Below are positions 2,878 through 31,742 of a DNA stretch of 40,522 nucleotides, in pieces (within the stretch, counting starts at the first letter, position 1; each line of letters begins with the position of its first letter). The stretch is from Folioceros fuciformis (Eukaryota). The stretch spans positions 260,451 through 300,972 of the forward strand of contig JBNGIO010006231.1 of the NCBI GenBank assembly GCA_049999805.1, given 5' to 3'. Below the pieces are notes generated by a model. That model was not told the DNA's origin and ran no database searches. It saw only the letters and a program-made list of their open reading frames with translations. The translations under genes were made by a program, and so were the position numbers.

Positions 2878-3635
2878 CCCCTACAACACGCAATCCCAGC
2901 GGAGTGGGACTAAGAGCGCGCCAGGCAGCCACCTCAATTGCGACGCCTCCAGCCGAGCTAAAGAAGCTGGTCAAACCAAGACACACCCGCGATCTCCCAT
3001 TGCCGAGGCACAAACCAAATACTGCAGGGGGGAACACCACAACACCACACACTACACACACCACACCACACGCCGGAACGGAGAAATGCAGACCAGGCCA
3101 AAGCAGGCCCCGGGAACCGAGGGACAAGAAATGCAGCAGCCGCTCTACCTCTCTATTTTCCACCCCCACAACTGCCAGGCAACTGTCCCGCCCAGAATGG
3201 GCGCAAATCCTAGCAAAGGCAGAAGCAGACTCGGCAGGGACAGCCCAGATCCGTGGCAATCATCCGCACAAGCACCCAAACCTCAGAAGTCACTCACTCA
3301 CCCCACAACAAACACATCAGCAGCAGCAGCAGCGGGAGGGAGGAAGAGGAAAGCAGTACAGCGCAGCCCAGGCAACCGCCCCTTCCTGCCGCCACAGCCA
3401 GGGCCGCCGTCGCCCGATCTGGCCTGCCTTGCGCAGGGTCAGGAGTAGGAGCGATGGCGGGGGCGGCAAAGAGGGGAGCGGAGCGCGCAGCAGGCGCACA
3501 CAGCCGAGCGAGCGGGGCAAGAGCGAGACACAAGAAGCCAAGCAGGCTAGGCCCCGGGGAAGGCACACTCTACTGCCTGCAGAAGCCTGGGAAGAAGGAA
3601 ACAAGAGGAGGTCAGGCTCGGGGGGAGGCCAGGTT

Positions 3636-3776
3636 CCGTCCCCGTCCCCGTCCCCGGCTCCGGCTCCGGCTCCGGCTCACCCTCTGCCTCTGCCTCTGTC
3701 CCTGCCTCCGCCTCTGCCTCTGGCCCTGGCCCAGGCCCAGGCCCAGGCCCAGTCTGGGTACAGAGAGAGAGAGAGA
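3636..3776. repeat. Compound hexamer microsatellite plus (GA)n upstream of CESA
   Basis: Successive units ccgtcc, ccggct, cctctg and ggccca, followed by gagagagagagaga. Confidence 0.85.
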
Positions 3777-5070: not shown

Positions 5071-5535
5071 TCATTGGTTGTGTTGTAGGCAAGCAAGTGA
5101 GTGAGTGACAAAGTGTATGACCCAAAGTATTGTAGGACAAGTTCAATTAGGTTTGGCAACTGATGAAGACAAAGATCAGTTAAGTGCAAGCCCTTATACC
5201 GCGAAACTAGGTTTGTTTTGGACTTGCATGATGAACTTGTTTCTTTGCTCCATAGCTGAGAGTAATCACGCAGAGCACTTGAAGTATGTAATTGTTAGTT
5301 AGATCATCAGTGTAGAGCAAGATCACAGCCCAGCAGAATAATTACGTGATGCGGAATTAAAAAAACGTTGTTAAGTAGGTCATTGGATAAGTGCGGGGCA
5401 TTAGGTAGCGTGACACCGACATGCACGACGACGCCCAGCCTGGGGGCCGCGAGACAGCTTAGAAGCTGGCTGGAAAGAGGTGCGACGTTGCTGGCAGCAC
5501 CGTGGGCCCCACTCATTATGTGGGTTTCGCCTGAA

Positions 5536-5660
5536 CCGGACCCGGACCCGGACCCGGACTCGGACCCGGACTCGGACCCGGTCCCAAACCCGGACTCGGA
5601 CCCGGCCCCAAACCCGGACTCGGACCCGGTCCCGCGCACGCACTCGGAACCGGACTCGCA
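5536..5660. repeat. GC-rich hexamer array (ccggac/tcggac) with a 24-bp higher-order unit
   Basis: ccggactcggacccggtcccaaac / ccggactcggacccggccccaaac / ccggactcggacccggtcccgcgc in tandem. Confidence 0.85.
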
Positions 5661-8600
5661 GCCCACTCTCTCCTTCTCGTTTTGCGCTCACGGTTCCCGC
5701 GTCTTGCTTTTGCCTCTTGGCCCTCTGGCCCTGTCCTCGTACAGCTGTGAAATTCTGGATTCACTATCCTCGCTTACGCCTCGTGTTAGGTGAGGACAGA
5801 CCAGGAGGACGCCATCTCCGCTGAGCACAACTTTTACTTGTAAGCCCGGAGCCTCGACTCGATTAGCTGACATACCATACCCTAAATGGCCATACGCTTT
5901 AGGGTGTTTCCTCTTTCATTGCTCCCGTTTCGTGCACCGCATGCTGGATGACTTGAATATCATTAGTACCTCCGGGATGCCATGTTGTACAACTGTCAAG
6001 TAGTGTAATCCAGGGTTATGCAAGGAGGAGCCTCGGTGAGGAATGATATGATTGCTCCTACACCGACAGGAAGGAAGGAAGCAAGGAAGGAAGGAAGGCA
6101 ATGGTGTAACTTGAAGCCAACATTGGCACTGGCCCTGGTATGCAAGGGTGTCGTCATTAATGTTTGCTGAAAATGCAGGAAAAGGGATGCCTGAAACGGA
6201 AAGGAGAAAGGGCACTGGAATGAATCGCTTAGGTGGAGTCCAGGGGCACACAGACTTGACAGCGTACGGGCGGCGAGGCGCCAGACAGACAGTTGGAAGG
6301 AAAGGTGTGTCGGTGGTGTAGACTGTAGTAGAGCAAGAGCAACTCCGGCAGGACCGCAACCTGCAATCCTAACACCACCAGTGCAGTATGTCGAGTATCG
6401 AAAGATAAGGGATGGATTTCATTGCCTCCGCGTTACCCTTCCTCACCCGGCCAGGCGTGGCTTCACGCGGTTCACCGTTTCCCGAATCGCGTCCCACGGG
6501 ACCTTGTGCCACTCTGCCACTGTCACTGCCACTCCGGCTCGGCGCCAAAGCCAGCCTCGCGCTTTCAGGTGACGCCTGTCCCGAGGAACCGCGCGGTCGC
6601 GGAAAGGTGCGCTCCATTTGCATCTCCATGTCACGCGTTATGGCAACGGCTCGTATGGCAATGGCCACGGTACATGCAGCTACCTCCTGCCTGGAGTGAT
6701 CAGTGATGTCATCTGCCAATGATGCACTAGGCTGGCTTGCCGTATGCCATCGCCTCTCCTCCCAGCTGCCCCTGTGCCTGGGCTGAGCTGTGCTGTGCGG
6801 AATAGTGGCTGTCTTGCGGATTAAGAAAACAGATCATCCACCAGCGGCATGTAAGTTGTCTTGCAGGAACGGCAAGTCCCGCAGAATGCGACGAATTTGT
6901 CAGCCCTAGCCTTAGGCCTAGCCCTAGTCAGGGTGAGGAATGTGTTTGGAGAGTGGGACGCACGGAGCAACAAGTACATACATTACATACTTGGTAGAAG
7001 CTCCACCAGTCTAGTCTATCCGCGAGGAGATGCGCGATGCGATGCCAGTGCGCAGGCTGCACACACACACATCGCTTTGCTCTCTTGTCAGAATCGTACC
7101 TTGAGCACGTGCCGGCGTGCTACAGCAGCTTGCGAGGGGTTTGTGTTGCGGACTTGCATGTGCAATATTGCACCTAGGTTGGTGAGACGGGGGCCTACAT
7201 ATCTGCCTTGCACATGAATGGATGCAAACGTTTGCGCTGCAAGAGCCATGCACAATGGCGTGGTTGATGACCCGCTTAAGATGTGATTAGGACTCGCAGC
7301 CTGCAAACTGGAATTGAAGTATTGCCAAAAGGATGCAAAGATGCTTCCGTCATGCAAGACATGCTTAGGATGCGGACAACGAGCTTGCATCAAGTCCAAC
7401 GTCGGCAAGCCAGATCACGGCCATGCTGCCGGCTGGGAAAGGCAGATCTCCGGGAGACCTTTGTGTCCATCCATGGGGGCCTCGCCTCCCAGGGATGACC
7501 CGGCCGTGCCCGGTGGCTTTAGCAGGTGCATCCTTCTCTGGCCCATGCCTGCCCCCTGTCTTTGGAGTCCATGCAAAAGATCAGATCACGCAGAATCCGA
7601 TGATCCTCACCTACTAAACTCTCCGTTGCTGTGTGCGCTCTCACAGTCGTGGTCTGCAATTAGGGTTTGCCCCGAGGCCCCGCCGAGGTCGGGGCCTCGG
7701 ACTCAGAAATTTCGGAGCAGGCTTCAACATTCAGTCGCCTTGACTTTCGGGACGGACTGACGGACCACATGAAATAATTGCTGATGAGAGAATGAGATGG
7801 CATCCTGTCGCAGGGAACTAGTTTACTGTATTTTATAACACAACTGCCAGTCGGGTCGGGCAGGCGGGTCTGCGGACGATGCTGTATACTATGTACTAGA
7901 CATAAAATCACTCCACAAAGAGACGGAGCCTGTGGGTGATCTTTTCCTGTGCTTTTATGCGCCGTAAACAAGTAATTTCCTTTGCCTCCGGATATCTCTC
8001 CCCTTGCTCGTCTCCTTGGACCTCTTCCTCCACCTGATCACGCGACTGATCAGGACCAGCATCAGTCGTTGCGTTGGATTTTTTTTCTTGTGGCCATCGA
8101 ATTGGCGGGTACTTACTTACCTTGGATCCTTGCCTTCGACTTCGCCTATGGCATTTACACTTTATGTCGGTGAGGCGAGTGGTCCTGCTGGCTCTCACTG
8201 TGACCTTTGGATGCCATTCGCATTTGTCGAGCCTGGAAGCGAATCGGACTAGATTCTTCTACTGCTGCATTGGTTATGGGCAGTCGTTGTGATGGAAGTG
8301 TGAGAGTTTTCCCTGCACTCGGTCTCAAACTGGGAAAAGTATGCACATCCACAGGTAGCGGATGAATATGATTGAGAGACCCGGCGTGTATCCTCTTTCT
8401 TCTGCTCTCTGCTCAGATGATTGCATATTAGTGACGATTTCGGGGATGATCCATGAACACCGGTTATTATGCTGAAGTTGCAAACAATAACACAGTGATC
8501 CGGCTCCACTCGCAGGCTACTTTCTTTCACGGGACAAGGACTTGGATTCGGGCAGTAGCACTAGCAATAGCACTAGCACGAGCAGTGGTGTGTGATTTTT

Positions 8601-12585: not shown

Positions 12586-15500
12586 CTACAAGGTACAATC
12601 CACCAGAAGCCTGGGGTAGTTGGCAGAGTCTGCACTGGCAAGAGTTGCGTCTGCTGTCAGTTCTTGGGACTGCTGCGATGTGACCAGGCTGGTGTCTTGG
12701 ACGTCAGATGCTTCAGACTTTACGTCATCCGTGAGCTCCATCACCTTCGCGAGGATGGTGTCGTAGGCTGCATGGCTAGTGTCTCCTGCCAGAAACGAGT
12801 GCACCAGCTCCGAGTGCTCGATCCAGCTGATACCCGGTTTCTTCCAGGCACCTGCACGCCGTCTCATGTCTTCCACCTTGTTGGCCTCGTCTGTCATGAG
12901 GGCGTCCGCATATATGTTCGACATGAGAACGTACGGCGCATCCAGTTTCGGTTCCAACTTCACCGCATACTCGAAAGCTTGCCGACCCAGCTCCACGTTG
13001 CTGTGCTTCTGGCATGCCCCAAGGAGAGCGAGCCACAGTGGCAGAGAAGGCTCCATAGGCATGTTTGAGATAACTTCTGCTGCCTTATCCAGGAGGCCTG
13101 CACGGCCAAGGAGGTCGACCAGGCTCACGTAATGCTCTGTTGTGGGGGCGATATTGTGGTCTCTCATCATGGAGTCGAAGTACCACAGACCCTTCTCCAC
13201 CATACCGCCGTGGCTGCATGCTGCCAGCACCGACAAGAAGGTCACTCCATGTGGCTTGATGCCTGAGTGTATCATGTCTTGAAAACATTGCAAGCTCCTT
13301 TTGCAATCCCCTTGCCGGGCATATCCTGCGAGCAGGGCAGTCCACAAGAACACATCTCTGTGCGGAGAGGCTTCGAAGACACGCTGTGCGTGCATCATGC
13401 TCCCACACTTGCTGTAAGCATGGACCAAAGTGGTGGTCAGCTTGTCACTAAGCTCCACCCCACTCTCCAGGATATCTGAATGGATCTGATGACACATTTT
13501 CAGAGAGCCAGTACTGCTGCAGGCTTTGAGGATGCAAAGAAAAGTAGTCTCATTAGGCCTCACACCTGCTGCTTGCATCTGGGCATACAGTTGCATTCCT
13601 TTCTCACCTTCCTCTTGCTGCGCATAGCCTGCAATCATTGCTGTCCAGGACACCACGTTGGGCTCCATGATCGTGTCAAAAACATGTCTTGCCTCCACCA
13701 GATCTCCGCAGTTGGCATACATGTCTACGAGAGTGTTGGAGACAAATGCATGTGATTCGTATCCAAGTTTCGTAACTGCTGTATGGATCTCCTTTCCTTT
13801 CTGTAATGAAATTGGTTTCAGCAGCTGCCCATTCACGAGAGTGGCTGGCTCTGATGCTGCCAAGGTCCCACATGCTTTCAGCACGCTGACAAACGTCCAG
13901 CTGTCGGGAGCAACACGTTCCTCTGCCATTTGAGCATATAGCTCCAACGCCCTGTCAGCCTCGTCTTGCTGAACATACCCAGCCAGCATCGCATTCCATA
14001 GTACAACGTCACTCTCTGGAAGACTGTCAAATGCATTCTGCGCATCAACCATACTCCCACAACTTGCGTACATTGCAACAACCGACGTTGCCACAAACAC
14101 ATCCAACTGCACTCCTCGTCTGATTGCTTCAGCATGCACCTGCCTACCCCTATGTAGTGATGAAATCCTTACAGATTTTCCATCAAGAACCAGCGGTTGC
14201 TCCATGCTTCCACATGCCTTGAATGCACTAACAAAAGTCCGACTCTCTGGCTTCAGGCCCTCCTCTTGCATTCGGGAAAACAGTTCTAAAGCCCTTTCAC
14301 CATTTTCTTGCTGGGAATAACCAGCAACCAAAACATTCCACGACACCAGATCGCGCATTGGCAATTCATCAAACACGTGCTGCGCATCGGACATGCTTCC
14401 ACACTTTGAATAAATGTCAATCAACGTGTTGCAAACGAATTGATTACCTCCATGGCCACTCCTCATTACATGTGTATGCACCTCCTTTGCAATTTTCAGG
14501 GAGCACAATCTAACCATTTGTCCATCCAAATCCACAGGCTGCTCCACAGCTGCCAGGCTGCCACATGCTTTCAACACGCTGACAAAAGTGCGGTTGTTGG
14601 GTTGGACCCCATCTTTCTGCATTTGAGCAAAAAGCTTCAGAGCTTTGTGACCCTGTCCTTGCTGGGCATAACCTGCAATCATAGCTGTCCACAGCACGAC
14701 ATCTCGGTTAGGCAGCTTCTCAAACACCTCCGCAGCTTCTACCATACCTCCACAGTTTGCATACAAGTTGATAAGACTTGCGCTCATGAATGCATCCCCC
14801 TCATAGCCCAGTTTAGCAGCCTCAGCATGAATTCCCTTGGCCTGTTGCAAGCACCCTGCTTTGACCAAATGCCCATCCATCAAAACAGGTTTTTCTTGAG
14901 CCGTGAGGGAGCCATATGCTTTGAGCACACCAACAAAGGTGCGATTATCCGGCCCTACACCTTCCTCCCGCATTCGGGCAAATAGCTCCAGAGCTTTTGC
15001 CCCTTGCTCTTGCTGTGCATAGCCAGTAATCATTGCATTCCAGGATGCAAGATCTCGCTGAGGCAATGAATCGAAAACAGCCTGAGCATCTACCATGCTT
15101 CCACATTTGGCATACATCGCAACCAAACTGGTCACAACAAACAGATTGGACTGGCAGCCAGTTCTCATGACCGCAGCATGAATCTTCCTCCCGCTATCCA
15201 AGGCTCCTAAGGTGGCACAGGCCTTAAGTAATTTCACAAGAGTGTATTCATTCGGCTGCACACCTTCCGCTGCCATCACCTGGTACATCCTAAGCGCCTC
15301 TTGCTCCTGTCCTGCTTTCACGTAGCCAGTGATGATGGCAGTCCACGAGAAACCAGTCCTTTCCGGCAGTATATTGAACACCTGCACCGCATGTGCCAAG
15401 CTCCCACACTTGAGAAATGTGTTTACAAGCAAGTTGCCCAGATAACTGTTGGCCTGTATTCCCTTCACACCGATATGAGCATGCACCCGCTTAGCCTCAG

Positions 15501-15909
15501 CCAGAGCCTTCCTTGTTATACAGCACCGAAGCAGATGACCATAGCACTCAACAGTGGGCACAGTTTTCTGCAAATCCATCTGCCGCAGAACTTCCATTGC
15601 CTCCTCCAAACGTCCATCTCCACACAAGCTCTTCAACTTCTCTGCAGCCACGTCGCTTTTCCGTTTCTTTGGTGTCACCTCTGTAGGTCGAGACTTGCTC
15701 CACCAAGCATCCTTCAGCTTCGGTAGAGTCTTTGGACCGCTGGAGGGAGGCGGTCTCCCAGCAGGTGCTTGCACCCCACAGCTCACCCACAAGGAACCTT
15801 CTTTCCGCCTGAAGCCGAAACCTGGACACTTGAGAGACAAACCTAGCACGAAATCCGACCCTGGCCTAATAGCAGGATCTGCCCAGGCACTGGGGCCACA
15901 CCCTGCCAT
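12586..15909 (-). CDS. PLS-class PPR protein (E+ type), putative organellar RNA-editing specificity factor, 1107 aa
   Basis: Intronless ORF from ATG at 15909. Ser/Arg/Pro-rich transit-like N-terminus, repeated P-L-S triplets (WNAMITGYAQ / TFVSVLKAC / LIDIYSKCG), E1/E2 (HYVSLVDLLGRAG..WLALLGAC..YVLMSNIY) and PG-box KKPGISWIE..HSFLAGD. No HxE..CxxC or DYW. Confidence 0.93.
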   Translation of the reverse strand: MAGCGPSAWADPAIRPGSDFVLGLSLKCPGFGFRRKEGSLWVSCGVQAPAGRPPPSSGPKTLPKLKDAWWSKSRPTEVTPKKRKSDVAAEKLKSLCGDGRLEEAMEVLRQMDLQKTVPTVECYGHLLRCCITRKALAEAKRVHAHIGVKGIQANSYLGNLLVNTFLKCGSLAHAVQVFNILPERTGFSWTAIITGYVKAGQEQEALRMYQVMAAEGVQPNEYTLVKLLKACATLGALDSGRKIHAAVMRTGCQSNLFVVTSLVAMYAKCGSMVDAQAVFDSLPQRDLASWNAMITGYAQQEQGAKALELFARMREEGVGPDNRTFVGVLKAYGSLTAQEKPVLMDGHLVKAGCLQQAKGIHAEAAKLGYEGDAFMSASLINLYANCGGMVEAAEVFEKLPNRDVVLWTAMIAGYAQQGQGHKALKLFAQMQKDGVQPNNRTFVSVLKACGSLAAVEQPVDLDGQMVRLCSLKIAKEVHTHVMRSGHGGNQFVCNTLIDIYSKCGSMSDAQHVFDELPMRDLVSWNVLVAGYSQQENGERALELFSRMQEEGLKPESRTFVSAFKACGSMEQPLVLDGKSVRISSLHRGRQVHAEAIRRGVQLDVFVATSVVAMYASCGSMVDAQNAFDSLPESDVVLWNAMLAGYVQQDEADRALELYAQMAEERVAPDSWTFVSVLKACGTLAASEPATLVNGQLLKPISLQKGKEIHTAVTKLGYESHAFVSNTLVDMYANCGDLVEARHVFDTIMEPNVVSWTAMIAGYAQQEEGEKGMQLYAQMQAAGVRPNETTFLCILKACSSTGSLKMCHQIHSDILESGVELSDKLTTTLVHAYSKCGSMMHAQRVFEASPHRDVFLWTALLAGYARQGDCKRSLQCFQDMIHSGIKPHGVTFLSVLAACSHGGMVEKGLWYFDSMMRDHNIAPTTEHYVSLVDLLGRAGLLDKAAEVISNMPMEPSLPLWLALLGACQKHSNVELGRQAFEYAVKLEPKLDAPYVLMSNIYADALMTDEANKVEDMRRRAGAWKKPGISWIEHSELVHSFLAGDTSHAAYDTILAKVMELTDDVKSEASDVQDTSLVTSQQSQELTADATLASADSANYPRLLVDCTL

Positions 15910-16171
15910 CCTCCTGCTACTTCACCGACAACACATTAAACTGACACCGAATGGCTTCCAACTTCACAAGATGCTTGAGATTTCCATAACCGCGAGGGAA
16001 AGAAAAATAAAGGATTTGCCAGGGATTTTAATCACGATGTCTCCCCAAATGTGGCCTCAGTAAAATTTCTCATACAAAGAAAGGTCCTCAGTATGCAGCA
16101 CAAGCACTGGACTGCATAACTTGGGACCAGAGAACAGAAGCCCTTTCCCGCGTCCCAAATCATGTACATGC

Positions 16172-19380: not shown

Positions 19381-22300
19381 TCACTCGGTGTAGAGCTGCA
19401 CGGGTCGGGGCCACCTCTGCCCGTAGACGTCGGGGGCTGGGCACGACCGGTCCCAGGACCATGGTACATCTGAACGTACACAAACAGAGTTAGCTCATGT
19501 CCCCTGCCCCACAGCACGAATGTTCTCTGCTAAAAAACGAAGCACACAGTAAGGTACCTTCCTCTGGGTTGTAGGGTGTGGGGGGAATGGAGTAGGGTAA
19601 TGGAAATCGGATGAGGTGGGTGGACTCCTGTGATTCACCACTCCATTGGGCAGTGACGAATTTCACGCTTCTCAGGCCTTCTTCTGTGCCGCTGCTTGAG
19701 GCTAGATCTGCTTTCAGTTCAGGTGCCTACCCCAAGAATAACTTGCACAGATCAGACTCCTGACTGACCCACAACGCAGATGCTGCAAAAAGGCATGCGT
19801 GATGTGCTTTCTACAAAGATGAATAGCATTAGAGATTAGTCTGGTGAGTACAGGGAGTGGGTTTTTTTGATCGGTGCATGAGAAAGGATGGAGACGCTGT
19901 TTGCGTGCCAAGGAAGGTACGAAGCAGACTCCAAGCTGCACAGACAATGCACCTTGATAAGCTTCATAGTCACTGAAAAGCACATGAGAGACTGCATAAA
20001 GTCATGGCGAGTGCTGAATAGACCTCGTACGAGCGAATCATCAGTTGGCTTGAGTTCTTTTGCAGAGCCCCCCAGGCAGCCTTACTCAGATTTGAGGACG
20101 TCAAGAGAAACCATCTGCAGGAATGAGGCTGGTCAGGTCAAGCCCAGAGACGAGCCTTGCAAGATGACTTCGTTTGAACGATGCTTTTCTGAAGATGAGT
20201 TACTCACGCAATACTCTGATCATGGTAGCGGACGAACGTTTTGATGTGTGGCATCGCCCGGCTGCACGTTTTCCAGGAAGCAGTTAGCATGCCTGCACAT
20301 CATGAACGCGATTTCAAGCTCATGTGAAGTAGCAACGACTGACCTTCTGCCAGAGTGCTCTGCTTGCCAGCGAGACCAATATCTGGAAAGGAAACTTTTC
20401 TGGATGTTCTTCAAGGGACTTGGTAGTGCATTTCCTGCGGCATAGCCCTGAAAGTTGAGCATAAGATCTTGTAAGAAGAATGGACTTTGGGTTCCCAGAG
20501 CTGCAGTCTTCAAAATCTCACCTCAAGTGACCATCGAACATTCTCTACCGTTGGCCATATGATTTGCACACTTCCAGGTCCCAGTGGTTTTTTCTCTTGA
20601 GTAGTGCCAGCACAAACAGATGCTGAAAACTCGGTCAGCCACTTTTCATCAAGGGAACCGAGAGAGGAGAACTGCAGACGCAGACAGACAGACACAGCTG
20701 ATTACACAGTCACTTATCAGAACATTGTCACTAATCCCAAAATCAAAACCATGGGATGATCAAGGACACACCTGATACACAACAGGAGCCCCAATAAACT
20801 CATCATCAAACCGCTCATTGGCCAATATCGTTCGCAGCTTCATATGACCCCACTTGGTGAGATTCCGTCCATTATGGTAACCGGGTACTGACGCTACCAA
20901 TCGAACCTTAGCCAGATGCACAGAATTTTCCAACAATTCTTCTGTCAGCAGGCTTACTACAACAGCAGAGACATTCAGACATATCCTGAGTAGCATCCTT
21001 AGGTTCACGTATGTAAGGATGCAATAGTTCTGACAATTGAGCATCCTTACTTACAGAAGCATCGGCAAAATTGAATCTCCGAAAATACGCAGCAGTCACT
21101 TGGACATCCCCTTGCCCAGGTATTGATGCTTTACATCCAGTCCACTGCTAGCCATGAAGCAAATAGGTCAATCGAAAATTCCCTTTGGCACCGCAAACAT
21201 TGGCAACGAGTGACGCCATGACGCCTTCATAATCCGGCTGCAGGAAGAAGTGTCGGACGTGCCTCCAGTGCTGTTAAGTATTCGACCAGATCATCCTCAA
21301 ACACCGAGCTTTCCTTTGAAGCTGTCTTACTCTTCAGAGGAAAGTCCTGCATCCAGAGGCCCTGTGACTTGTTGTTCCAATCAACATGGATCAAATTCGC
21401 CGTGTGGATAATGATTCGGACCCCTGTCCTATAAATAAGGAACATGGCTTTTGAATGATGTGTGCCATACGAAATCCGAAGAGGGGGCTTGTACAACAAC
21501 CAATGTGAGGGCTTGTGAGCCTGCACTTCAGAACACGGATATCAGACGGGAAACACACATTAAATTAAAATACTTCACAATCGGAAGACCAAACCAAACA
21601 CGATAACCAAGATTGGGAAATAAAGATCTGAGAGTTCCCCCATGCCTGAAGGTGATCCAGAGACCCTCCGCCCTCTCCATGGAAAATTACGACTCGAGGT
21701 ATCTCCTTGAGGAGTGGGCAAGCTGCCAACAACCACACCCATCAGAATGCAAAACGAAAAGATCCCAGCCGGCTATGCGACAGTCTAGCATGGGTTCGAT
21801 CGCAACTTCCGCTACCAAACACGGAACCCCACCAGATAAAAGCCATTGCAGATCGACCATGTAGTTGGAAATAAGGGCCACTTGTATGTCACCCTGCAGC
21901 GTACACCCGCCACTGTTACTCACCATACTGGAGTGGAGGAACATCAACATTACCCTTTCAAACTTATCCCCAAGGCAAAGCCAGCTTGACGAAATGCCGT
22001 GTGTCTAAATACAAAGCTTCAGACCTGTATAACATCCCCCACGGTCACACATCCTGCATTAGCCCAGCCAGGAAGATTCGCAACGCGCATGAGTCTGAAC
22101 GTTGAAGAGAGCTCTGACACGCTGGGCTTTCCAGGCTCGACGGGCAAACTACTTCCCGCAACCATGCTGGCAGCTTGTGTAGACCCAGAACTGAAAGACC
22201 TCCTAACTCGCTCCAGCTCCAGCTTCACAGCCCTCTCCTCTTCCTCCTGCCACACACGCACGAGAAGGCGATGAATTGGGTCCTGAAACCTCAGTTACTG

Positions 22301-22422
22301 GAAGAAACTCGAATGTCCGTCGAATGCACCTGCAAACTCCGCGCCAGAGCCTCATCTTCGCTTATCTGCCTCTTCCGTTTCCTGGAAAGATCCTCCTCCT
22401 TCTCTCCACTACCACCCGTCAT
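19381..22422 (-). CDS. TDP1: Tyrosyl-DNA phosphodiesterase 1
   Basis: Two HKN catalytic motifs: [14 protein letters not shown] and [21 protein letters not shown]. Also [26 protein letters not shown] and [10 protein letters not shown], with C-terminus [24 protein letters not shown] (stop 19381-19383). Start [28 protein letters not shown] at 22422 is inferred. About 13 exons. Confidence 0.93.
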
Positions 22423-22460
22423 GGCCAGGAAAGCACAGGTCGAGATTAGCCTGGTCGACT

Positions 22461-22468
22461 GCGCGAAA
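22461..22468 (-). promoter_or_regulatory. Candidate E2F site TTTCGCGC upstream of TDP1
   Basis: Exact TTTSSCGC match ~40 bp upstream of the TDP1 ATG. Fits a DNA-repair gene, but an 8-mer can occur by chance. Confidence 0.35.
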
Positions 22469-22585
22469 CCCCGAGCACAACTCTGCCAAGTGGAAATCCT
22501 CGCAAGGCCGTCACCTGGAAGAAGTTAGAGGAGTAGAAATTATACTCTAAAGTTTATTTAATTAAAATGCAATGTCTCCTGTCTT

Positions 22586-22669
22586 CCGACTTTAGCTCAG
22601 TTGGTAGAGCGGAGGACTGTAGAGTCGACAGATATCCTTAGGTCGCTGGTTCGAATCCGGCAAGTCGGA
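22586..22669 (+). tRNA. tRNA-Tyr(GTA): Nuclear tRNA-Tyr (GTA) with an 11-nt intron
   Basis: CCGACTT/AAGTCGG acceptor stem, A-box TAGCTCAGTTGG, anticodon GTA at 22619-22621, intron 22623-22633 at position 37/38, B-box GGTTCGAATCC and discriminator A. Mature length 73 nt; T-runs downstream at 22682 and 22695. Confidence 0.97.
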
Positions 22670-23007
22670 CTGTATCGTACATTTTCAAAAATGCTTTTTA
22701 CTCCTTGGTAATCTGTCTTGTCTAAACCAAATTCGGAATTACAAATTTTCGAGGAGAAAATTGGGTAGACTACTGTCGTCCGTGGAAGTGAGAAAAGTGA
22801 AACTGCAATGGTAAAGTCAGCCCTTTCCTTTCAGCCAATTATGGGACATTAACCCTTTCATGTGAGAAAAACGTCTGGGACCTTGCTTTGATTACTTGTG
22901 TCATTATACACGATTAATGAGCTCCATACAAGGGGCAACTCTAGAGTCGGTCAGGGTTAGACGAGGATCCGTCCTCCTGGAACGTCCGGGGTGCTCCACG
23001 ACGCGCA

Positions 23008-23107
23008 NNNNNNNNNNNNNNNNNNNNNNNNNNNNNNNNNNNNNNNNNNNNNNNNNNNNNNNNNNNNNNNNNNNNNNNNNNNNNNNNNNNNNNNNNNNNN
23101 NNNNNNN
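23008..23107. other. Assembly gap (100 N)
   Basis: Run of N. Confidence 1.
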
Positions 23108-23830
23108 CGGGCGACACGTCCGACACCGGTGCAGGAGAGGATGCCAGAGGCACGACGCCGGCAAGAGGCGGCGCAGGCGGAGTCGATCCATCACCATGGG
23201 CACCAGGCGGAGCGCCTGAAGCTGGGCCGAGTCCGAGTCCGAGTCCGAGTCCGCGTCCACGTCCAGCAGCATGAGTGCACGTACTGCTCCACCACGGGGT
23301 TCTGGAATCCCTCGTAGTCTCGTTCACCAGGTACCCGGCGCCGTACGCCATGAGCTTGCCGCGGTGCAGCTCCAGCCCCCGCACATGGTGCGACGAGTGG
23401 CGTAGGGGATGTCGGCGGTGACTGTGCCGTGGCGCTCGCTGGCGAAGGCGCGGAGGAGGGCGCGGGGTTCAGGTGGTACATGATGCCCTTGGATGACGCC
23501 ACGTCCGGGTTGGCGATGGAGTCGGTGACAGAGGTTTCCAGGTTGAGCAGGCAGGCGGAGGTGCGGGGGCGGGGAGATGTGCAGGTTGAGGTAGTCGCCC
23601 CACAGGTACGGCCCGTCTTCGTTCAGCTGGTGGATGGTGGAGAGCGGCAGGTCCGTGGCCGGGTCGCTTGGGTGCAGACTGATGTCAAGGTATTGCCATG
23701 CCGGCATGGAATCCTTGACTGCCTCCTCACCAGGCGTGCGGTGGAAGGCCGACAGCTGCACGGCGCGGCCCAGCATGGTGGCGCCTCCCATGAGAAGCAT
23801 TCGGATGCTTCTCCCCGACGCCATTCCCAT
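23108..23830 (-). pseudogene. capA-like: Frameshifted, internally deleted CapA/PGA_cap-family (metallophosphatase-like) gene
   Basis: Joined across frames: MLLMGGATMLGRAV..YLWGDYL..PHLRL/LNLETSVT..KGIMYHLNP / HSSHHVRGLELHRGKLMAYGAGYLVN/DYEGF / LMLLDVD..LQALRLVPMVMDRLRLRR. These match CapA motifs GDxMLGR, YIWGD, NLET, GHSSHH and YGxGDxxNDYEG. Intronless and GC-rich. Confidence 0.8.
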
Positions 23831-24029
23831 CCCAAATCACGATTCTCGCCATGATGGATGAGCTCGCCTTCGCAAACGCCATTCCTTCGGGGAGGATGCG
23901 GACACGGATCGCCTGTCTGGCGACGGCGCTGTTAGACATATCAGGATCCAGTGTAGTGCAAGTGGAGGACGCAGCTTGCTATTTCCTACCTACACGCCTT
24001 TCGCTGCTACTGTCCGTGTCGCGGATTGT

Positions 24030-24256
24030 CTCTTAGTGAACTGAACCAACTCCTCACAAACAGCTCACTTACTGAAGAGAACGAACAGCTCAATTTCTGA
24101 AGACAACATACAGCTCATTTACTGAAGAGAATACACAACTCACTTAGTGAAGACAACACACACCTGGCTCACTTACTGAAGAGAATAAACACCTGGCTCC
24201 CTCATTTAAGAGAATGGACACATACTGTGGCTCATCGCTTAGTGAAGAGAACAAAC
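24030..24256. repeat. Minisatellite, ~25-30 bp unit, about 7 copies
   Basis: Units such as cagctcacttactgaagagaacgaa, cagctcaatttctgaagacaacata and cagctcatttactgaagagaataca; they degenerate toward 24256. Confidence 0.85.
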
Positions 24257-25266
24257 GGATCACGTAACTGAGCTCATCATAGAAGCTCTCACTACGGCAT
24301 CATGACTGGACGTCTTACTTGACTAGACCCCGTCTAGCAAGGCGGAAGCATGATCCGTCACGGCAGCCACGTGTATAGGTGGGGAAGGATAGTATTTAAG
24401 TGAAGGCCACGTAGAAGGATCGACGACGATCAAGGTTGGGCGGCCAGACAAAATACAAGAGGTGAGTTCTTCCACAATTTGGAGTGCAGGTACCGTCTTA
24501 CATACATAGGTACAACGCCTCTCCGACACCTAGATCTCTGAGACCACCTACGCCCATCAATAAAAAAAAAAGGAAAAAAAAGGGTAATCTAGACAACCAC
24601 ATGGGTTGCGGTCACCGCTAATCCCTCTTCTCCCCGTCCTCCCCCCAACTTGGATGGCATCAATAGCTACCTCGGGAGCAATTACATCCAGAAACCAGGT
24701 CATGCGACTGACAAAGAATCAGGCCAAGAATCAGGCCAAGAATGCCCCCACAACCTGGAACTCAAGCAAACACTGACTTTGGCACAATATCGTGCTGCCC
24801 TCGTCGGCCCCTTCATCATCCAGCAACCTATCTGCCACAACATGAAGACTATAAGCTAACATGTACAGGTGCAACAAGTCAGAACCCATCACGTCCCACA
24901 CCACATGCACACTCATGCACCTTTCTCCAAATCCAGCAAATAAGCACGTCCCAAAACTGCCACACTTTCTCATCACTTTCTCTTAACATTCCTCTAGACT
25001 CAGATACAACAACATTCAGTTAAACTGCACAACCCAAAAAACAAAAAATTTCAACATAAACCAAATTTTTGCCCACACGAGACCTCAAGCCTCCAATGTC
25101 ATTCAACAAAGCAACTCGAACTATGTGCCGACCACCTATTCGAACAAGCGGCTGCTCCCTACACATTGCTAGTAGAAATGTGAGCATCTCCTGGCCGTTT
25201 CCGAGACAGAAGTTCCATCCAATAATGGAACAGCTAACTTAGCAGTCAAGATCCTAGGTTATCACC

Positions 25267-26834
25267 TCAAGAGCAGCATCCGCTTTTCTGGGCAAGCGGC
25301 TGAGATTTCATTTGCACAGTGTTTGGCTTGCTGCTATTGAGAGCTGGTTGGGAAGCCATCCTACACAAACAACAGGATGCACCGATCACATTTCTGTCTG
25401 AATAGCAAAGCACCACCACACCAAGCTCTTAGAAGACGGAAATCAAACCTGTTCTTAATTTCAGCTGCCATGGTCATGAAAGCCTGCTCCACATTAGTTG
25501 CATTCTTGGCACTGGTCTCAAGGAACGGAATGCCAATTTCATCAGCAAACGCCTGCATTGAAAGAGAAAAAGGTCAGAACACGTCACANNNNNNNNNNNN
25601 NNNNNNNNNNNNNNNNNNNNNNNNNNNNNNNNNNNNNNNNNNNNNNNNNNNNNNNNNNNNNNNNNNNNNNNNNNNNNNNNNNNNNNNNTTATTAAAGCTT
25701 TCCTGGTCTGTGACATCGTACACGACCTGCAGTTCCCATCATAAAAATTCAGCTCCACAATCCAGAACTGCGACAGCAGGCCTCCAGCAGATAAAGCATG
25801 GGTAGAAGGAATGATAGTCACGATGATTCCATGAGCTCCACGGTAGTAACTGCTGGTAATGGTCCTGAACCGCTCTTGCCCTGCGGTATCCCACTAAGGT
25901 AGCAGCACAAAACCGGACACCCACATAACTCAGAATACATTGAAAAGGACAACGCAAGCCGCATTCAGATGACCATTGATAAAAGTTCCTGTGAAAGAAT
26001 GAAATCAGGCTGCTACGTACGATTTGCAGTTTGATAGTCTTCCCATCGAGCTCAACTGTGCGAATTTTCTGCATCATACACACACGTGTCCAAAGTTATT
26101 GACCTAAGTTGCATATGCGGGAAGAGGCCCTCAGAGTGCTAACATCCATCCACGCTCGCCCTGCACCAAAACTTACGAAATCAACACCGATGGTACTGAT
26201 GTAGCTATCCAGATAGGAGTCGTCCTGCACAACAGGAGAGGCCCTGAGTAAGAAACAAGTGATCCATGTCTTCCTTGTCGACAAGGAGAAAAAAACGCCA
26301 CCTTCCCCTGATGCGGTCATGCGAGCTTCCCGTGTTTCCAATATAGTCAGCCCGTTACCATCTGTCAACTACGTAGCACCTATAACCTAAACCGGCAACA
26401 ACTAGACCTCCTCCCCCGCCAGTTCCCGGGCACATGTCCGACGCATCGAGCCACAACTTACAGCAAAACGAAGCAAAAGACATGACTTCCCCACTCCCGA
26501 GTCCCCAATCAGCAGCAGCTTGAAGAGGTAGTCACTGCACAGAGCCAGAACGGCGTAAGCACAAGGGGGAAAAAGACATGGCATCACGCGCAGGCCACTC
26601 CAAGCAGGTCCGACCAGCGCATGCGCTCAGACGGCAGCGATCTTAGATTGCAGCCGAGAAATTCCCCAGACTGCTTCTAATTTCACATTAACAAGAGCGG
26701 CAGGGCAGATCATCCGCAACCCTACCCCCGGCCATGACAGCCGAGGCAAAACAAACGGCGATCTCGGCAACCACGCGGAAAGCGAGGCCACAGAGCCATG
26801 TCTGGAGCAGCAACACTCACTATTCGGGATTCAT
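25267..26834 (-). CDS. RABD2: Rab GTPase, RabD/Rab1 (YPT1) subclass
   Basis: [45 protein letters not shown] and C-terminal GCCS* prenylation motif. Exons 26834-26821, 26534-26462, 26224-26177, 26068-26021, 25893-25822, 25726-(gap), 25552-25449, 25360-25267. The NKxD region falls in the N gap. Confidence 0.96.
25589..25688. other. Assembly gap (100 N) inside RabD exon 6 / intron 6
   Basis: Run of N. Confidence 1.
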
Positions 26835-28112: not shown

Positions 28113-31064
28113 CTACTGCACCACGAGGTGATGCGTCGCGCAGTTGTTGGTCCTGGTACATGATGCAGGGTGCGGTGGTGCGGTTACGGCACCCGAGTTC
28201 ACGATCGGGTGGGTGTTGTTTAGGTCAAGGGAGGAAGGAAGGGTACAGACTACAGAGGCTGGGTTTTGGATTGCCGTCAGCAGGGCTTGTAACCTTGCGT
28301 AGATTTGTGGAGTATCGGGATGTCGTCTATCAGCCACCGAGAAGACATGGGAAGTCCCGTCCTCGTCCGTCCACCAGCTGCGGCCTGGTTCTTTCCGTGC
28401 TCCCGCTTTCAGTCTCATGTCCTGGACCTGCCTTGCCTCGTCGGGCATGAGTGCAGCGGAGTAGATGTTGGCCATGAGGACATACGGGGCGGGGTCGAGC
28501 ATGTCCTGCCTCACTGCACCCTCGAATGCCTGTCTTCCCAGCTCCACGTTCCCCCATTTTTGGCACGCACCCAAGAGGCTTTTCCACACCTTGGTGTCCG
28601 GCTGGAAGGGCATGGAGTTCACCGTCGCCATGGCCTGCTCGATCTGGCCGGCGCGGCCCAGCAGGTCAACCATGCAGCTGTAGTGCTGGATTGTTGGGGT
28701 GATGCCATGCTGCTTGATCATGGCTGCGAAGTACTTCTGGCCCGTGCCCACCAGACCCACATGGCTGCATGCCGTGAGGACACCCAGGAAGGTGATGTCG
28801 TTGGGCTGCGTGCCCGCCTCCTGCATTCTGCTGAACAGCTGAAACACCGCCTCCTGCTGCCCTTGCCGGGCGTAGCCCAGAATGAGGGCGTTCCAGGCAA
28901 CGATTTCCCTCTTGGGGGTTGCGTCGAACACCTGCTGGGCGTCCACCATGGACGAACACTTGCTGTACATGTCGATCAGGCTGTTCGTCATGAAGGGGCT
29001 GGACTGCAGGCCTGCTTTCTGGATCTGGGAGTGGGTTTCCCTCCCTTTCGCCAGGCATGCCACTGTGCCACACGCGTTGAGGATGCCCACGTATGTTCGA
29101 TCGTTCGGGAGCACGCCTTGCTCTTGCATTTGCCTGTAGATTAGCAGTGCCTCTTCACCCTGATCCGTCTGAGCGTACCCGACGATCATGGCTGTCCAAG
29201 ACACCACATTCTTGGTGGGCATTCCATCGAACACCTGCCTGGCATCCTCCAGGCTCCCACATTTGGCGTATGCATCTACGAGCATGTTCCGCACAAACAT
29301 GTTGCACTCGGAGGTCTCGTTCAGAGCGTCCGAGTGGATGCCTCTCACGATTTCCAGGCACCGTTTCTTCGTAGCGACATCATCATCACCATATCGCTCC
29401 CCTGATTCTGCGATGCTGCTGCAGGCCTTCAATGCACCAACGTACGCTCTGTCGTCGGGGGCCACAGCTTCATGTCGCATTCGTCTGTATAATTGCAATG
29501 CCTCCTCGCCCTTGTCGTTCTCCACATACCCCAGCATCATAGCAGTCCAGGATGCAACGTCACGGTGGGGCATTGTTTCAAACACCTCCCTACCACTCTC
29601 CAAGCTCCCACATTTGGAATACGCATCCACCAGCATAGTACCTACAAAAACATCCAACCCAGACTTCCCAGCATCGGCATGAATGGTTTTCAGAATCTTC
29701 AAGCATCGGCTTTTCAAAAGTATTTTGTCACCGCCATCTGTCTCCCACAATTCCGCCAGAGCAGTGCAGGCTCTCAGTGCTCCAACATGTGTTCGGTCAT
29801 TAGGTACGACGCCTTGCTCTCTCATTCTTGTGTACAGCTGCAAAGCCTCTTCTCCCTTCTCCATCTGGGAGTACCCTAAGATCATGGTATTCCAGGACAC
29901 AACATCCCGACGAGGCATTTTATCAAACACCCGCCTTGCATCCTCCAAACTCCCACATTTTGCATATGCATCTACGAGCATGTTTCCCACAAACGCATCT
30001 GTCTCCAACTCCCTCGCACAAACGTCATGGTGGATGCCTCTCACCGTTTCCAAGCAATGTATCCTCACGTCCACTCCATCATTCCCATCCCTGTTCCCGC
30101 TTTCAGCAAGCGAACTGCAAGCCTTGAGCACACCAACATAAGCTCGGTCGTCGGGGACAACACCTTCGCGTTCCATTCTTCTGTACAGCCGCAAAGCCTC
30201 TTCACCCTGCTCCTTCTGGGCGTACCCCAGGATCATTGCAGTCCATGACACTACAGTGCGGACAGCCATTTTCTCGAACACCCCTCTGGCATCCTCCAGG
30301 CTCCCACACTTGGAATAAGCATCTACCAGCTTGTTCCCCACAAAGACATTGGACTCCAAATTCGCCTTCACAATGTCCGCGTGGATGCCTCTCACATTCT
30401 CCAGCCACTGTCTCCTAACACCTTTCCAATCGCTGCCTCGATCCTCCTCTGCTTCTGCAATGCACCCACAAGCCTTGAGTGCGCCAAGAAAGGTCCTCTC
30501 ATCACATACCACGCCCTCCTGCTGCATCCGTCCGTACAAACTCAAAGACTCTTCACCATTCCCCACCTGCGAGTAACCCAAAACCAGAGCATTCCATACA
30601 ACCACGTCCCGATGACGCATTTCCTCGAACACCCTCCTGGCATTCTCCAGGCTCCCACATCTCGTGTAGGCATTCACAAGCATGGTACCCACATACAAAT
30701 CCGTCTCCAACCCACTCCTGACCACGTCTGCGTGGACCTCTTTAGCACAACTCAACTCTTTCAAGCTACTGCATGCCTTCAGCAAAGCCACGAATGTGTG
30801 CGGGCCCGGTTCTACTCCATCCTTCCGCATTTCCTCATACATCTTCAGAGCCTGTCTACCCTGCCCAGACCTGGCCCGTTCCATTATCAGCCCAGTCCAG
30901 GCAGCCTGCCCCCGTTGAGGCCATCCCACCCCTGCAGCTACCACGGAGCCAGTACCGCTCTCATCCGTCAACCTGGTGCCACGATCATCAACATTCCCTG
31001 TCACCCAAGGTGGAATCCTCCTCACGTCAACAATCCGCAGCATGGTCTGCGCGCAGCATGACAT
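28113..31064 (-). CDS. PLS-class PPR protein with a WW-type PG-box and no deaminase core, 983 aa
   Basis: Intronless ORF from ATG at 31064. P-L-S triplets (WTAMILGYAQ / YVGVLKAC / LVDAYAKCGSLEDAR), E1/E2 (HYSCMVDLLGRAG..WKSLLGAC..YVLMANIY), then KEPGRSWWTDEDGTSHVFSVADRRHP and an unrelated tail. Confidence 0.92.
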   Translation of the reverse strand: MSCCAQTMLRIVDVRRIPPWVTGNVDDRGTRLTDESGTGSVVAAGVGWPQRGQAAWTGLIMERARSGQGRQALKMYEEMRKDGVEPGPHTFVALLKACSSLKELSCAKEVHADVVRSGLETDLYVGTMLVNAYTRCGSLENARRVFEEMRHRDVVVWNALVLGYSQVGNGEESLSLYGRMQQEGVVCDERTFLGALKACGCIAEAEEDRGSDWKGVRRQWLENVRGIHADIVKANLESNVFVGNKLVDAYSKCGSLEDARGVFEKMAVRTVVSWTAMILGYAQKEQGEEALRLYRRMEREGVVPDDRAYVGVLKACSSLAESGNRDGNDGVDVRIHCLETVRGIHHDVCARELETDAFVGNMLVDAYAKCGSLEDARRVFDKMPRRDVVSWNTMILGYSQMEKGEEALQLYTRMREQGVVPNDRTHVGALRACTALAELWETDGGDKILLKSRCLKILKTIHADAGKSGLDVFVGTMLVDAYSKCGSLESGREVFETMPHRDVASWTAMMLGYVENDKGEEALQLYRRMRHEAVAPDDRAYVGALKACSSIAESGERYGDDDVATKKRCLEIVRGIHSDALNETSECNMFVRNMLVDAYAKCGSLEDARQVFDGMPTKNVVSWTAMIVGYAQTDQGEEALLIYRQMQEQGVLPNDRTYVGILNACGTVACLAKGRETHSQIQKAGLQSSPFMTNSLIDMYSKCSSMVDAQQVFDATPKREIVAWNALILGYARQGQQEAVFQLFSRMQEAGTQPNDITFLGVLTACSHVGLVGTGQKYFAAMIKQHGITPTIQHYSCMVDLLGRAGQIEQAMATVNSMPFQPDTKVWKSLLGACQKWGNVELGRQAFEGAVRQDMLDPAPYVLMANIYSAALMPDEARQVQDMRLKAGARKEPGRSWWTDEDGTSHVFSVADRRHPDTPQIYARLQALLTAIQNPASVVCTLPSSLDLNNTHPIVNSGAVTAPPHPASCTRTNNCATHHLVVQ

Positions 31065-31742
31065 CCTGGTGCATCACCTCATGCAAATCTCCCGCCGTCC
31101 ATGGCACGTCCTGTTTTATCCTCATCGACGCCACCACCTTGACGGAAGGCCATGTTTGGCAAGTTCGAAACCCATCAGCCATGTCCATTAATTCACACAA
31201 GATGTTGGCATTATGGTCTCCTTTTTCAATGAAAATACGTACATGTGTAGCTATTTTACGATGAAATCCGCGACACCAGACTTGCACTCGCGACAGTCAT
31301 GCGACGTGGAATGCTGATGACGTAAAGCTGCGACCGTGCGCGGGATTGTTTGAAGCAAGGTTCGATCAGGCTGTGCGTCAGACAGTCCGATCGACCTTCA
31401 CCAGACGCTCCCTGCGAGGGTGGATCCTGCAGACTGGAGCTCCGGCCCTGTGCTCGGGCTGGCTACTACGACATGCGCGCGCTGCTGTTGGACGAGGGGG
31501 TTTCACACAGAGGCGGCCCTACTGGGAGCCTTCAGCCAGCTCCTCTGCGGACATGACAGGGCGCTCGCTGGAGAGCTAGTCCGGATTCGAGGTGGATGAG
31601 CGAGTTTGAGGATTTTGGATCCGTAGATTCAGCGTGCAGCAGGCAATTCGGCAATGTGCACCTGTGGATTGGTTTGGGGCCATCGCGGGCGATCTGAGTA
31701 GCAGCAGTAGGATATAGGGCGGGAGCTGGGTGTGTCTCCGAC

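Follow-up and report, generated by a model that had tools for sequence, protein, structure and literature searches.

The CapA/PgsA component of the poly-gamma-glutamate synthetase carries an N-terminal membrane anchor. Among solved structures, only the lasso-peptide epimerase MslH (PDB 8GQ9), which has a PGA_cap-type calcineurin-like fold, matches the proteins considered here, and its Asn87, His88 and Asp91 are given as a metal ligand and a catalytic dyad (PMC10406935). For the potato cyst nematode Globodera rostochiensis, a table of genes attributed to horizontal transfer includes a PGA_cap (PF09587) gene (PMC4901422). Inserts resembling nucleocytoplasmic large DNA viruses (NCLDV), many of them pseudogenised, are described for the moss Physcomitrella and the lycophyte Selaginella in another report (PMC4083422). 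In this study, we analyzed 40,522 nucleotides of DNA from Folioceros fuciformis (GenBank assembly GCA_049999805.1, contig JBNGIO010006231.1, positions 260,451 to 300,972 of the forward strand), referred to as the window, in which a preliminary description made from the sequence had pointed to a decaying CapA/PGA_cap-family gene. We found that the minus strand at 23830-22957 of the window very probably holds a dead, intronless copy of a CapA/PGA_cap-domain gene of a soluble, eukaryote-type form; that the locus is a pseudogene, a non-functional CapA/PGA_cap remnant, is almost certain. A literature search found no paper on the CapA/PGA_cap family in land plants and no functional study of the eukaryote-type CapA-domain clade; supplementary lists of genes acquired by horizontal gene transfer in plant genome papers lay outside that search and may name the family. 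The earlier statement that the family is uncharacterised in plants agrees with this result.

Identity and lesions of the relic gene

When 22400-24600 was read in three frames, all of the motifs listed in the preliminary description, from GGATMLGRAV to NDYEG, were recovered on the minus strand in the order of the family, and HSSHH was placed at 23399-23385, exactly where it had been reported. The extent had been given as 23108-23830; the start side of this interval was correct, but the relic continues past a gap of unread letters (N) to a TAA stop codon at 22959-22957. Both ends of the gene, start codon and stop codon, are thus retained.

The first 88 in-frame codons were searched against 5.8 billion protein clusters, and the sole match was a protein designated P0001 (57% identity, E 5.9e-19), the single match among 72 candidates (longer proteins). 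P0001 has 477 amino acids, belongs to PF09587 and comes from a Logan contig; it scored 79.6 bits against Pfam PGA_cap, for which the cut-off is 27, and four further relatives also passed this threshold. Comparison of P0001 with the whole window by tblastn gave colinear pieces (E 1.8e-29 and 7.7e-16; Table 1), and the relic and P0001 share 61% identity over 232 aligned columns. The 15-residue match beyond the gap is not significant alone (E 2.6) and was assigned by its colinear position, spacing and frame. In addition, 246 of the 249 family proteins tested aligned to 22900-23900 (E<=1e-3) and showed the same frame pattern; this homology signal is far beyond chance. Membership of the PGA_cap family, as claimed before, was thus borne out by one route and not by the other: the colinear homology mediated by P0001 was significant, whereas the direct Pfam scan stayed below threshold, with only one of the six frame pieces matching PGA_cap (15.5 bits, E 0.012, profile positions 228-253; gathering threshold 27 bits). 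Such a score is expected for a fragmented gene.

The lesions proposed earlier were all located. At 23555-23548, four bases are duplicated in tandem (cctg|cctg), which throws the reading out of frame, and removal of one copy restores the RLLNLET reading. The portion left out of frame, which comprises 28 codons with the NLE motif, ends at the first of two newly identified 3n+1 deletions, to which the further frameshifts were mapped (~23464-23467 and ~23279-23280). In the large central deletion, P0001 residues 144-340 are gone and the joint lies at 23399; it amounts to ~590 nt (~197 codons), adds a frame shift of its own and removes the ANNH region (ANNHxxD, here ANNHxMD) together with the HWG motif (HWGPNW). 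A 2-bp insertion (ga) precedes DYEG at ~23320-23321, and the (GACTCG)n expansion consists of 5.3 copies at 23227-23258 on the minus strand, adding six in-frame residues (DS repeats) relative to P0001.

Point changes were also found in the remaining motifs. The Asp of GGD is replaced by Ala (GGA; codon 23782-23780, GCC), while the other aligned full-length rows read GGD or CGD (10 of 10), and the Asp of GAGD, present in all other aligned rows, is replaced by Tyr (GAGY; codon 23333-23331). The NLE motif at 23547-23539 is retained, only in the shifted frame, and so are the GH..H motif (HSSHH) and the GLE (G.E) that follows it. Columns that are at least 90% conserved across 56 other members of the clade were also compared: of the 62 that remain in the relic, 9 are changed, compared with 6 in P0001 on those columns and a median of 1 in the other members. 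Because of the four frame-breaking indels, the ~590-nt deletion of ANNH..D and HWG, and the two replaced Asp residues, the relic cannot encode the enzyme.

Programmed frameshifting and RNA editing were considered as ways of rescuing the frame and were ruled out, since the catalytic core is deleted. A processed retrocopy was likewise rejected: there is no A-run 3' of the stop codon and no direct repeat around the GC-rich island, hence no target-site duplication. In the 255 codons of the ancestral frame no stop codon was found, and under an equal-rates approximation this limits the neutral divergence since inactivation (95% level) to less than ~0.13 per site. As the codon-position signal also survives, the loss of constraint would be fairly recent.

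Table 1. Positions of the relic gene, its matches and its neighbours in the window
Feature	Position	Strand	Remarks
Start codon ATG	23828-23830	-	aligns with starts of full-length family members
Segment 1, 93 codons	23552-23830	-	N-terminal strand, GGD to GGA, clade-specific insert, YLWGD
Segment 2, 28 codons	23464-23547	-	shifted frame; NLE metal-ligand motif to YHLNP
3n+1 deletion	~23464-23467	-	~3 residues short relative to P0001; back to first frame
Segment 3, 22 codons	23399-23464	-	ends IPYA
Joint of internal deletion	23398-23400	-	flanking codons (IPYA / HSSHH) share one base; frame changes
Segment 4, 26 codons	23322-23399	-	HSSHH..GLE..YGAG
Segment 5, 13 codons	23281-23319	-	DYEGFQNP...
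3n+1 deletion	~23279-23280	-	~4 residues lost relative to P0001
Segment 6, 57 codons	23108-23278	-	C-terminal domain, stop-free
Assembly gap	23008-23107	.	100 N
C-terminal end, 16 codons	22957-23007	-	with TAA stop (22959-22957)
AT-richer post-stop stretch	22869-22956	-	within 1937-nt X1 contig
P0001 residues 1-143	23776-23399	-	tblastn
P0001 residues 341-367	23399-23319	-	tblastn
P0001 residues 367-379	23319-23281	-	tblastn
P0001 residues 376-424	23302-23138	-	tblastn
P0001 residues 463-477	22998-22954	-	tblastn; beyond N gap, ending at stop
Spacer, Rab last-exon acceptor to relic ATG	23831-24833	-	acceptor at 24831, Rab stop few codons downstream; unbroken in X1 contig
Rab1-like GTPase gene	24400-26100	-	two introns, 24832-25265 and 25360-25447, confirmed by X1 spliced contigs
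Intron-bearing tRNA	22586-22670	+	Rfam tRNA 61 bits at 22586-22669; ARAGORN 'tRNA-???', four-letter anticodon
PLS-type PPR ORF	12586-15921	-	intronless, 1111 codons stop to stop
PLS-type PPR ORF	28113-31073	-	intronless, 986 codons stop to stop

Integration, composition and transcription of the locus

Three public runs, representing two samples and two studies, cover the stretch: X1 (2017, from a separate sample and study) and X2 and X3 (both 2025), the contigs of which were mapped to 22300-25500. Over this region, the contigs of all three runs showed no other letters and no gaps or indels relative to the window, and the frameshifts were present in every run. X2 record 9 spans 22640-24656, beginning within the tRNA gene and crossing the gap and the entire relic, and X1 record 1, the 1937-nt contig, spans 22869-24833. 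In X2, the depth over the relic was 9.8, and that of neighbouring contigs was 12.8 and 9.3. The preliminary description had allowed that the segment might be a chimeric contaminant join or its indels assembly errors; against this, both the gap and the flanks are spanned without differences by contigs of two studies. Because independent contigs agree and the depth is host-like, neither are the lesions errors of a single assembly nor is the segment a contaminant. The relic is integrated in the plant nuclear genome, between the Rab1-like gene and the putative tRNA-Tyr gene. Loose contig ends in X2 at 23190, 23224 and 23570 may belong to the hexamer repeat elsewhere or to a partial paralogue.

The gap of 100 N within the relic is represented by 72 letters in read-derived contigs of X1 and X2. 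Since 100 minus 72 is 28, and 28 mod 3 is 1, the C-terminal end, which looks shifted in the window, would be in frame with segment 6; the spacing across the 72-nt gap is 37 codons, compared with 38 in P0001.

As described earlier, the relic is intronless and richer in GC than its surroundings, with 66% against 48% in both flanks. The GC island covers ~22955-24010 (~1.05 kb), and the part upstream of the ATG (~23837-24010) is still GC-rich at 56-59%. In the ancestral frame of the relic, the GC contents at the first, second and third codon positions (GC1, GC2 and GC3) were 0.68, 0.46 and 0.87, whereas GC3 in three host coding stretches of the window was 0.54, 0.65 and 0.61; a fourth host stretch, the CesA zinc-finger region, gave an odd GC2 and was not relied on. 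The codon usage of the relic differs from that of the neighbouring host genes, which suggests that it came from a GC3-rich genome.

The Rab gene lies upstream of the relic on the same strand. X1 alone has two joints, one skipping 434 nt and the other 88 nt, each bounded by GT..AG when read on the minus strand; X1 therefore contains spliced Rab RNA, and the exons joined at these splices yield the Rab C-terminus, ..GCCS-stop, shortly downstream of 24831. The 1937-nt X1 contig starts at the acceptor of the last Rab exon and continues through the relic. The relic is thus probably transcribed, as a long 3' tail of the Rab transcript, by read-through or in an overlapping transcript, and this transcription is without consequence at the protein level. 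X1 does not cover 22300-22868, and the contig end at 22869 was not taken as a transcript end; in the search for runs containing the stretch, no holder was listed as RNA.

In the spacer that separates the relic from the Rab gene, eight degenerate tandem units of 25-29 nt were noticed at 24029-24262, inside the X1 contig, and a second N gap (25589-25688) lies inside the Rab1-like gene. On the other side, the tRNA had been placed ~440 bp away; the distance is 438 bp from the end noted earlier and just 287 bp from the actual stop codon. We read this gene, from its sequence, as a likely tRNA-Tyr(GUA). It is multi-copy in the genome, because several other X2 and X3 contigs match only the tRNA stretch. 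A significance of the nearby tRNA for insertion was considered and rejected, as there are no flanking repeats.

Farther away, the window contains two pentatricopeptide repeat (PPR) open reading frames (ORFs) of the PLS type. For the one at 28113-31073, the best organism-named relatives among the matches listed were lycophytes (Diphasiastrum and Selaginella, ~42%), followed by ferns, conifers and bryophytes, and other contigs reached <=55%. CesA exons including the zinc-finger region were recognized by eye from ORF translations at 597-2795 on the minus strand. The CesA exons, the two PPR ORFs and the Rab gene in the window identify the host side as a land plant, probably a seed-free one. GC-rich microsatellites of dinucleotide and hexanucleotide type, giving GSGSGS, TRTRTR and PEPEPE runs in several frames, occur at 3550-3750 and 5400-5700.

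Phylogenetic placement and origin

Two trees were calculated, a careful tree of 43 rows (LG+C20, 6 bacterial rows) and a quick tree of 75 rows (LG+G4, 17 bacterial rows). In the careful tree, the relic and P0001 were sisters with support of 100/90 inside a eukaryote-type clade supported at 100/100, and the quick tree gave the same placement. In both, a long stem divides this clade from all of the bacterial CapA rows sampled. Its named members are Plasmodiophora, Paulinella, diatoms, oomycetes, Chromera, Cymbomonas and a giant virus, and by taxon it comprises Rhizaria, stramenopiles, an alveolate (Chromera), a prasinophyte (Cymbomonas) and giant viruses. The relic also carries an insert specific to the clade after MLGR (..Q..PGEE..DS..) and a long C-terminal domain, which are absent or shorter in the bacterial rows.

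P0001 is the only close relative of the relic. Besides being sisters, the two have common derived changes at conserved columns (Q to R and H to N), and both look GC-rich: GC3 of the relic is 87%, and the residue make-up of P0001 departs from that of the alignment in the careful tree, a bias that we read as GC-driven. Unlike the relic, P0001 is an open frame of 477 codons in which ANNH, HWG and the central domain are intact; it also contains long low-complexity inserts. With P0001 as query, 226 proteins reached E<=1e-5; 120 of them were listed, and 19 of these rows are organism-named: Plasmodiophora, four diatoms, Chromera, ten oomycetes, Cymbomonas, a giant virus, Lysobacter and Streptomyces. 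Neither land plants nor fungi occur among these 19 (0/19 for each). When phmmer was run exhaustively on 1.84 billion representatives, nothing nearer to P0001 than Plasmodiophora (53%) was found. Ten further representatives were looked up, and none of the three that were organism-named (Paulinella, a Bdellovibrionales metagenome-assembled genome (MAG) and Pythium) is a land plant. The 'CapA family protein' of this Bdellovibrionales MAG, P0247, stood above other bacterial proteins (E 1.6e-64, 44% over matched stretches); it lies outside both trees and could be a contaminant of the MAG or a genuine bacterial member of the eukaryote-type clade.

The most likely history, which we consider somewhat probable, is a horizontal origin of the relic in which the donor was a giant virus or a microbial eukaryote, and not directly a bacterium. 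On this scenario the whole gene would have arrived by horizontal transfer and then decayed. Because the backbone of the eukaryote-type clade was unresolved, no donor can be named. The bacterial or fungal source suggested in the preliminary description is not supported by the position of the relic. Of its proposal of horizontal acquisition, the foreign composition and the fact that no land-plant homologue was found stand, but the vertical constraint was not rejected. Beyond this, a lineage of seed-free land plants might have acquired a soluble CapA-domain enzyme with a calcineurin fold, the donor being a GC-rich protist, alga or giant virus and not a bacterium, and might have made use of it temporarily. 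P0001 would then be the intact counterpart, either an orthologue that survives in a related plant or a paralogue in the present one; we regard this extension as conceivable but rather doubtful.

The main alternative, although an unlikely one, is a vertical relic: a gene ancestral in the green lineage would have disappeared from almost all streptophytes and died recently here, P0001 being a surviving plant or algal orthologue. When the relic, P0001 and Cymbomonas were forced as a clade on the quick tree (LG+G4), the cost was 35.8 log-likelihood units, and the approximately unbiased (AU) test did not reject the constraint (p-AU 0.097). Vertical descent would also suit the unresolved backbone, the occurrence of the family across several eukaryotic supergroups, and the many seed-free plant genomes that have no deposited proteomes. 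However, the unconstrained trees do not unite the relic with Cymbomonas, and GC3 of 87% departs from the 54-65% of the neighbouring host genes. Neither land plants nor other streptophytes appear among the organism-named matches (0/19 among those listed and 0/3 looked up), although a PPR query of the same database did retrieve proteins from lycophytes, ferns, mosses, liverworts and conifers. Homologues spread vertically through the streptophytes, which the preliminary description had named as evidence against horizontal transfer, are thus not seen among these organism-named matches.

Derivation from a virus or bacterium by other routes is less probable still. The locus could be the remnant of an integrated NCLDV genome, which we regard as quite improbable: the family does occur in giant viruses, namely in P0070 (from a 1.6-Mb 'uncultured virus' contig) and at 3 IMG/VR loci, one of them in a giant-virus MAG, and the inserts of Physcomitrella and Selaginella offer a precedent (PMC4083422). 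Nevertheless, the viral copies are distant (34% over ~110 residues in a 12-row profile, 3 loci), P0070 does not group with the relic in either tree, and a scan of viral contigs with P0001 found no relative. The GC island measures only ~1.05 kb with host genes on both sides, and the inserts of PMC4083422 were AT-rich and silent, unlike the relic locus. Direct transfer of a poly-gamma-glutamate capsule gene from a bacterium or fungus seems very improbable to us, even though the Pfam family is named after bacterial capsule synthesis, bacterial CapA-family proteins reach 33-37% identity to P0001 with common HSSHH..GD..DYEG motifs, and P0247 scores among the eukaryote-type matches. The relic and P0001 lie apart from all 6 and all 17 bacterial rows, the clade-specific N-terminal insert of the relic is lacking in Lysobacter and Streptomyces, the 14 residues before GGA leave no space for a membrane anchor, and no fungal name occurs in the 19 organism-named rows among the matches listed. 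Finally, the 100-N scaffold gap inside the relic and the GC jump at its edges would fit an artefact, be it a contaminant attached during scaffolding or an intact gene disrupted by indels of the assembly, but with the bridging contigs of two studies, their 0 differences, host-like depth and frameshifts in all three runs, such an artefact is extremely improbable.

Several points weigh against our reading of a dead gene acquired from a eukaryotic microbe or giant virus. The relic pieces lie below the Pfam threshold, and family membership comes through transitive homology; the in-frame reading over the gap is deduced solely from the length of the gap. The GC3 contrast comes from few host coding stretches of one window, not from a genome-wide spread. 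The clade backbone is unresolved in both trees, and the AU test leaves the clade with Cymbomonas standing. P0001 begins at an internal Met and is therefore without the GGD strand; it is divergent and differs at 8 of 96 conserved columns, among them the one that holds the Glu of the G.E motif. It may be diverging or decaying too, and its source organism may be a plant. As for transcription, RNA is only a guess from the X1 record, which does not state it, and X1 also has an unspliced contig at 24804-25295; a contig over two genes is not proof of a single transcript, and the contigs carry no strand.

Comparison with known systems

Taken alone, the relic is a dead gene from which no phenotype is expected. 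It documents well, with exact lesions and confirmation by independent read sets, that a plant nuclear genome can contain DNA of foreign appearance, and it points to a eukaryote or virus as the source and not to a bacterium; plant gene transfers of this kind are much less catalogued. The locus also draws attention to the widespread eukaryote-type CapA-domain clade. If an intact copy exists in the plant or its relatives, the family can be tested in a land plant, and the interest of the finding hinges on the survival of such a copy. If the gene was indeed taken up and used temporarily, with P0001 as its intact counterpart, an uncharacterised family of eukaryotic enzymes would have a living representative in some land plants, and the locus would date its loss.

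The ancestral protein was most likely a soluble, metal-dependent enzyme with a calcineurin-like metallo-enzyme fold, judging from its motifs. A membrane anchor has no room, because only 14 residues, which are non-hydrophobic, precede GGA (ancestrally GGD). A role as an anchored CapA/PgsA component of a capsule synthetase is thus unlikely. The neighbours identified are the Rab gene and the tRNA gene, no scan directed at pgsB or pgsC having been made of the window. The bacterial CapA/PgsA proteins belong to the same Pfam family, and the relic lies in a different clade.

Compared with MslH, the match is distant (profile E 2.5e-12, in two stretches only), and MslH is a bacterial enzyme whose substrate is the precursor of a RiPP, a peptide made on the ribosome and modified after translation (PMC10406935). 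Its Asn87, His88 and Asp91 align to the ANNHxMD of the family, and His259 aligns to the HWG block, both of which are deleted in the relic. His295 aligns to the fourth residue of HSSHH, which is retained. Asp11 of MslH would correspond to the Asp of GGD, Ala in the relic, an equivalence that lies outside the alignment.

The PGA_cap gene of Globodera rostochiensis likewise belongs to a multicellular eukaryote and is attributed to horizontal transfer (PMC4901422); it is an animal gene model and the present locus a dead plant copy. With the eukaryote-type CapA-domain proteins the relic shares a short N-terminus that leads directly to the GGD strand, an insert behind MLGR, the block HSSHH..GAGD..DYEG and ~100 residues of C-terminal domain. 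Unlike the relic, these proteins are intact, show 37-45% identity to P0001 among the matches listed, and none of them is from a land plant.

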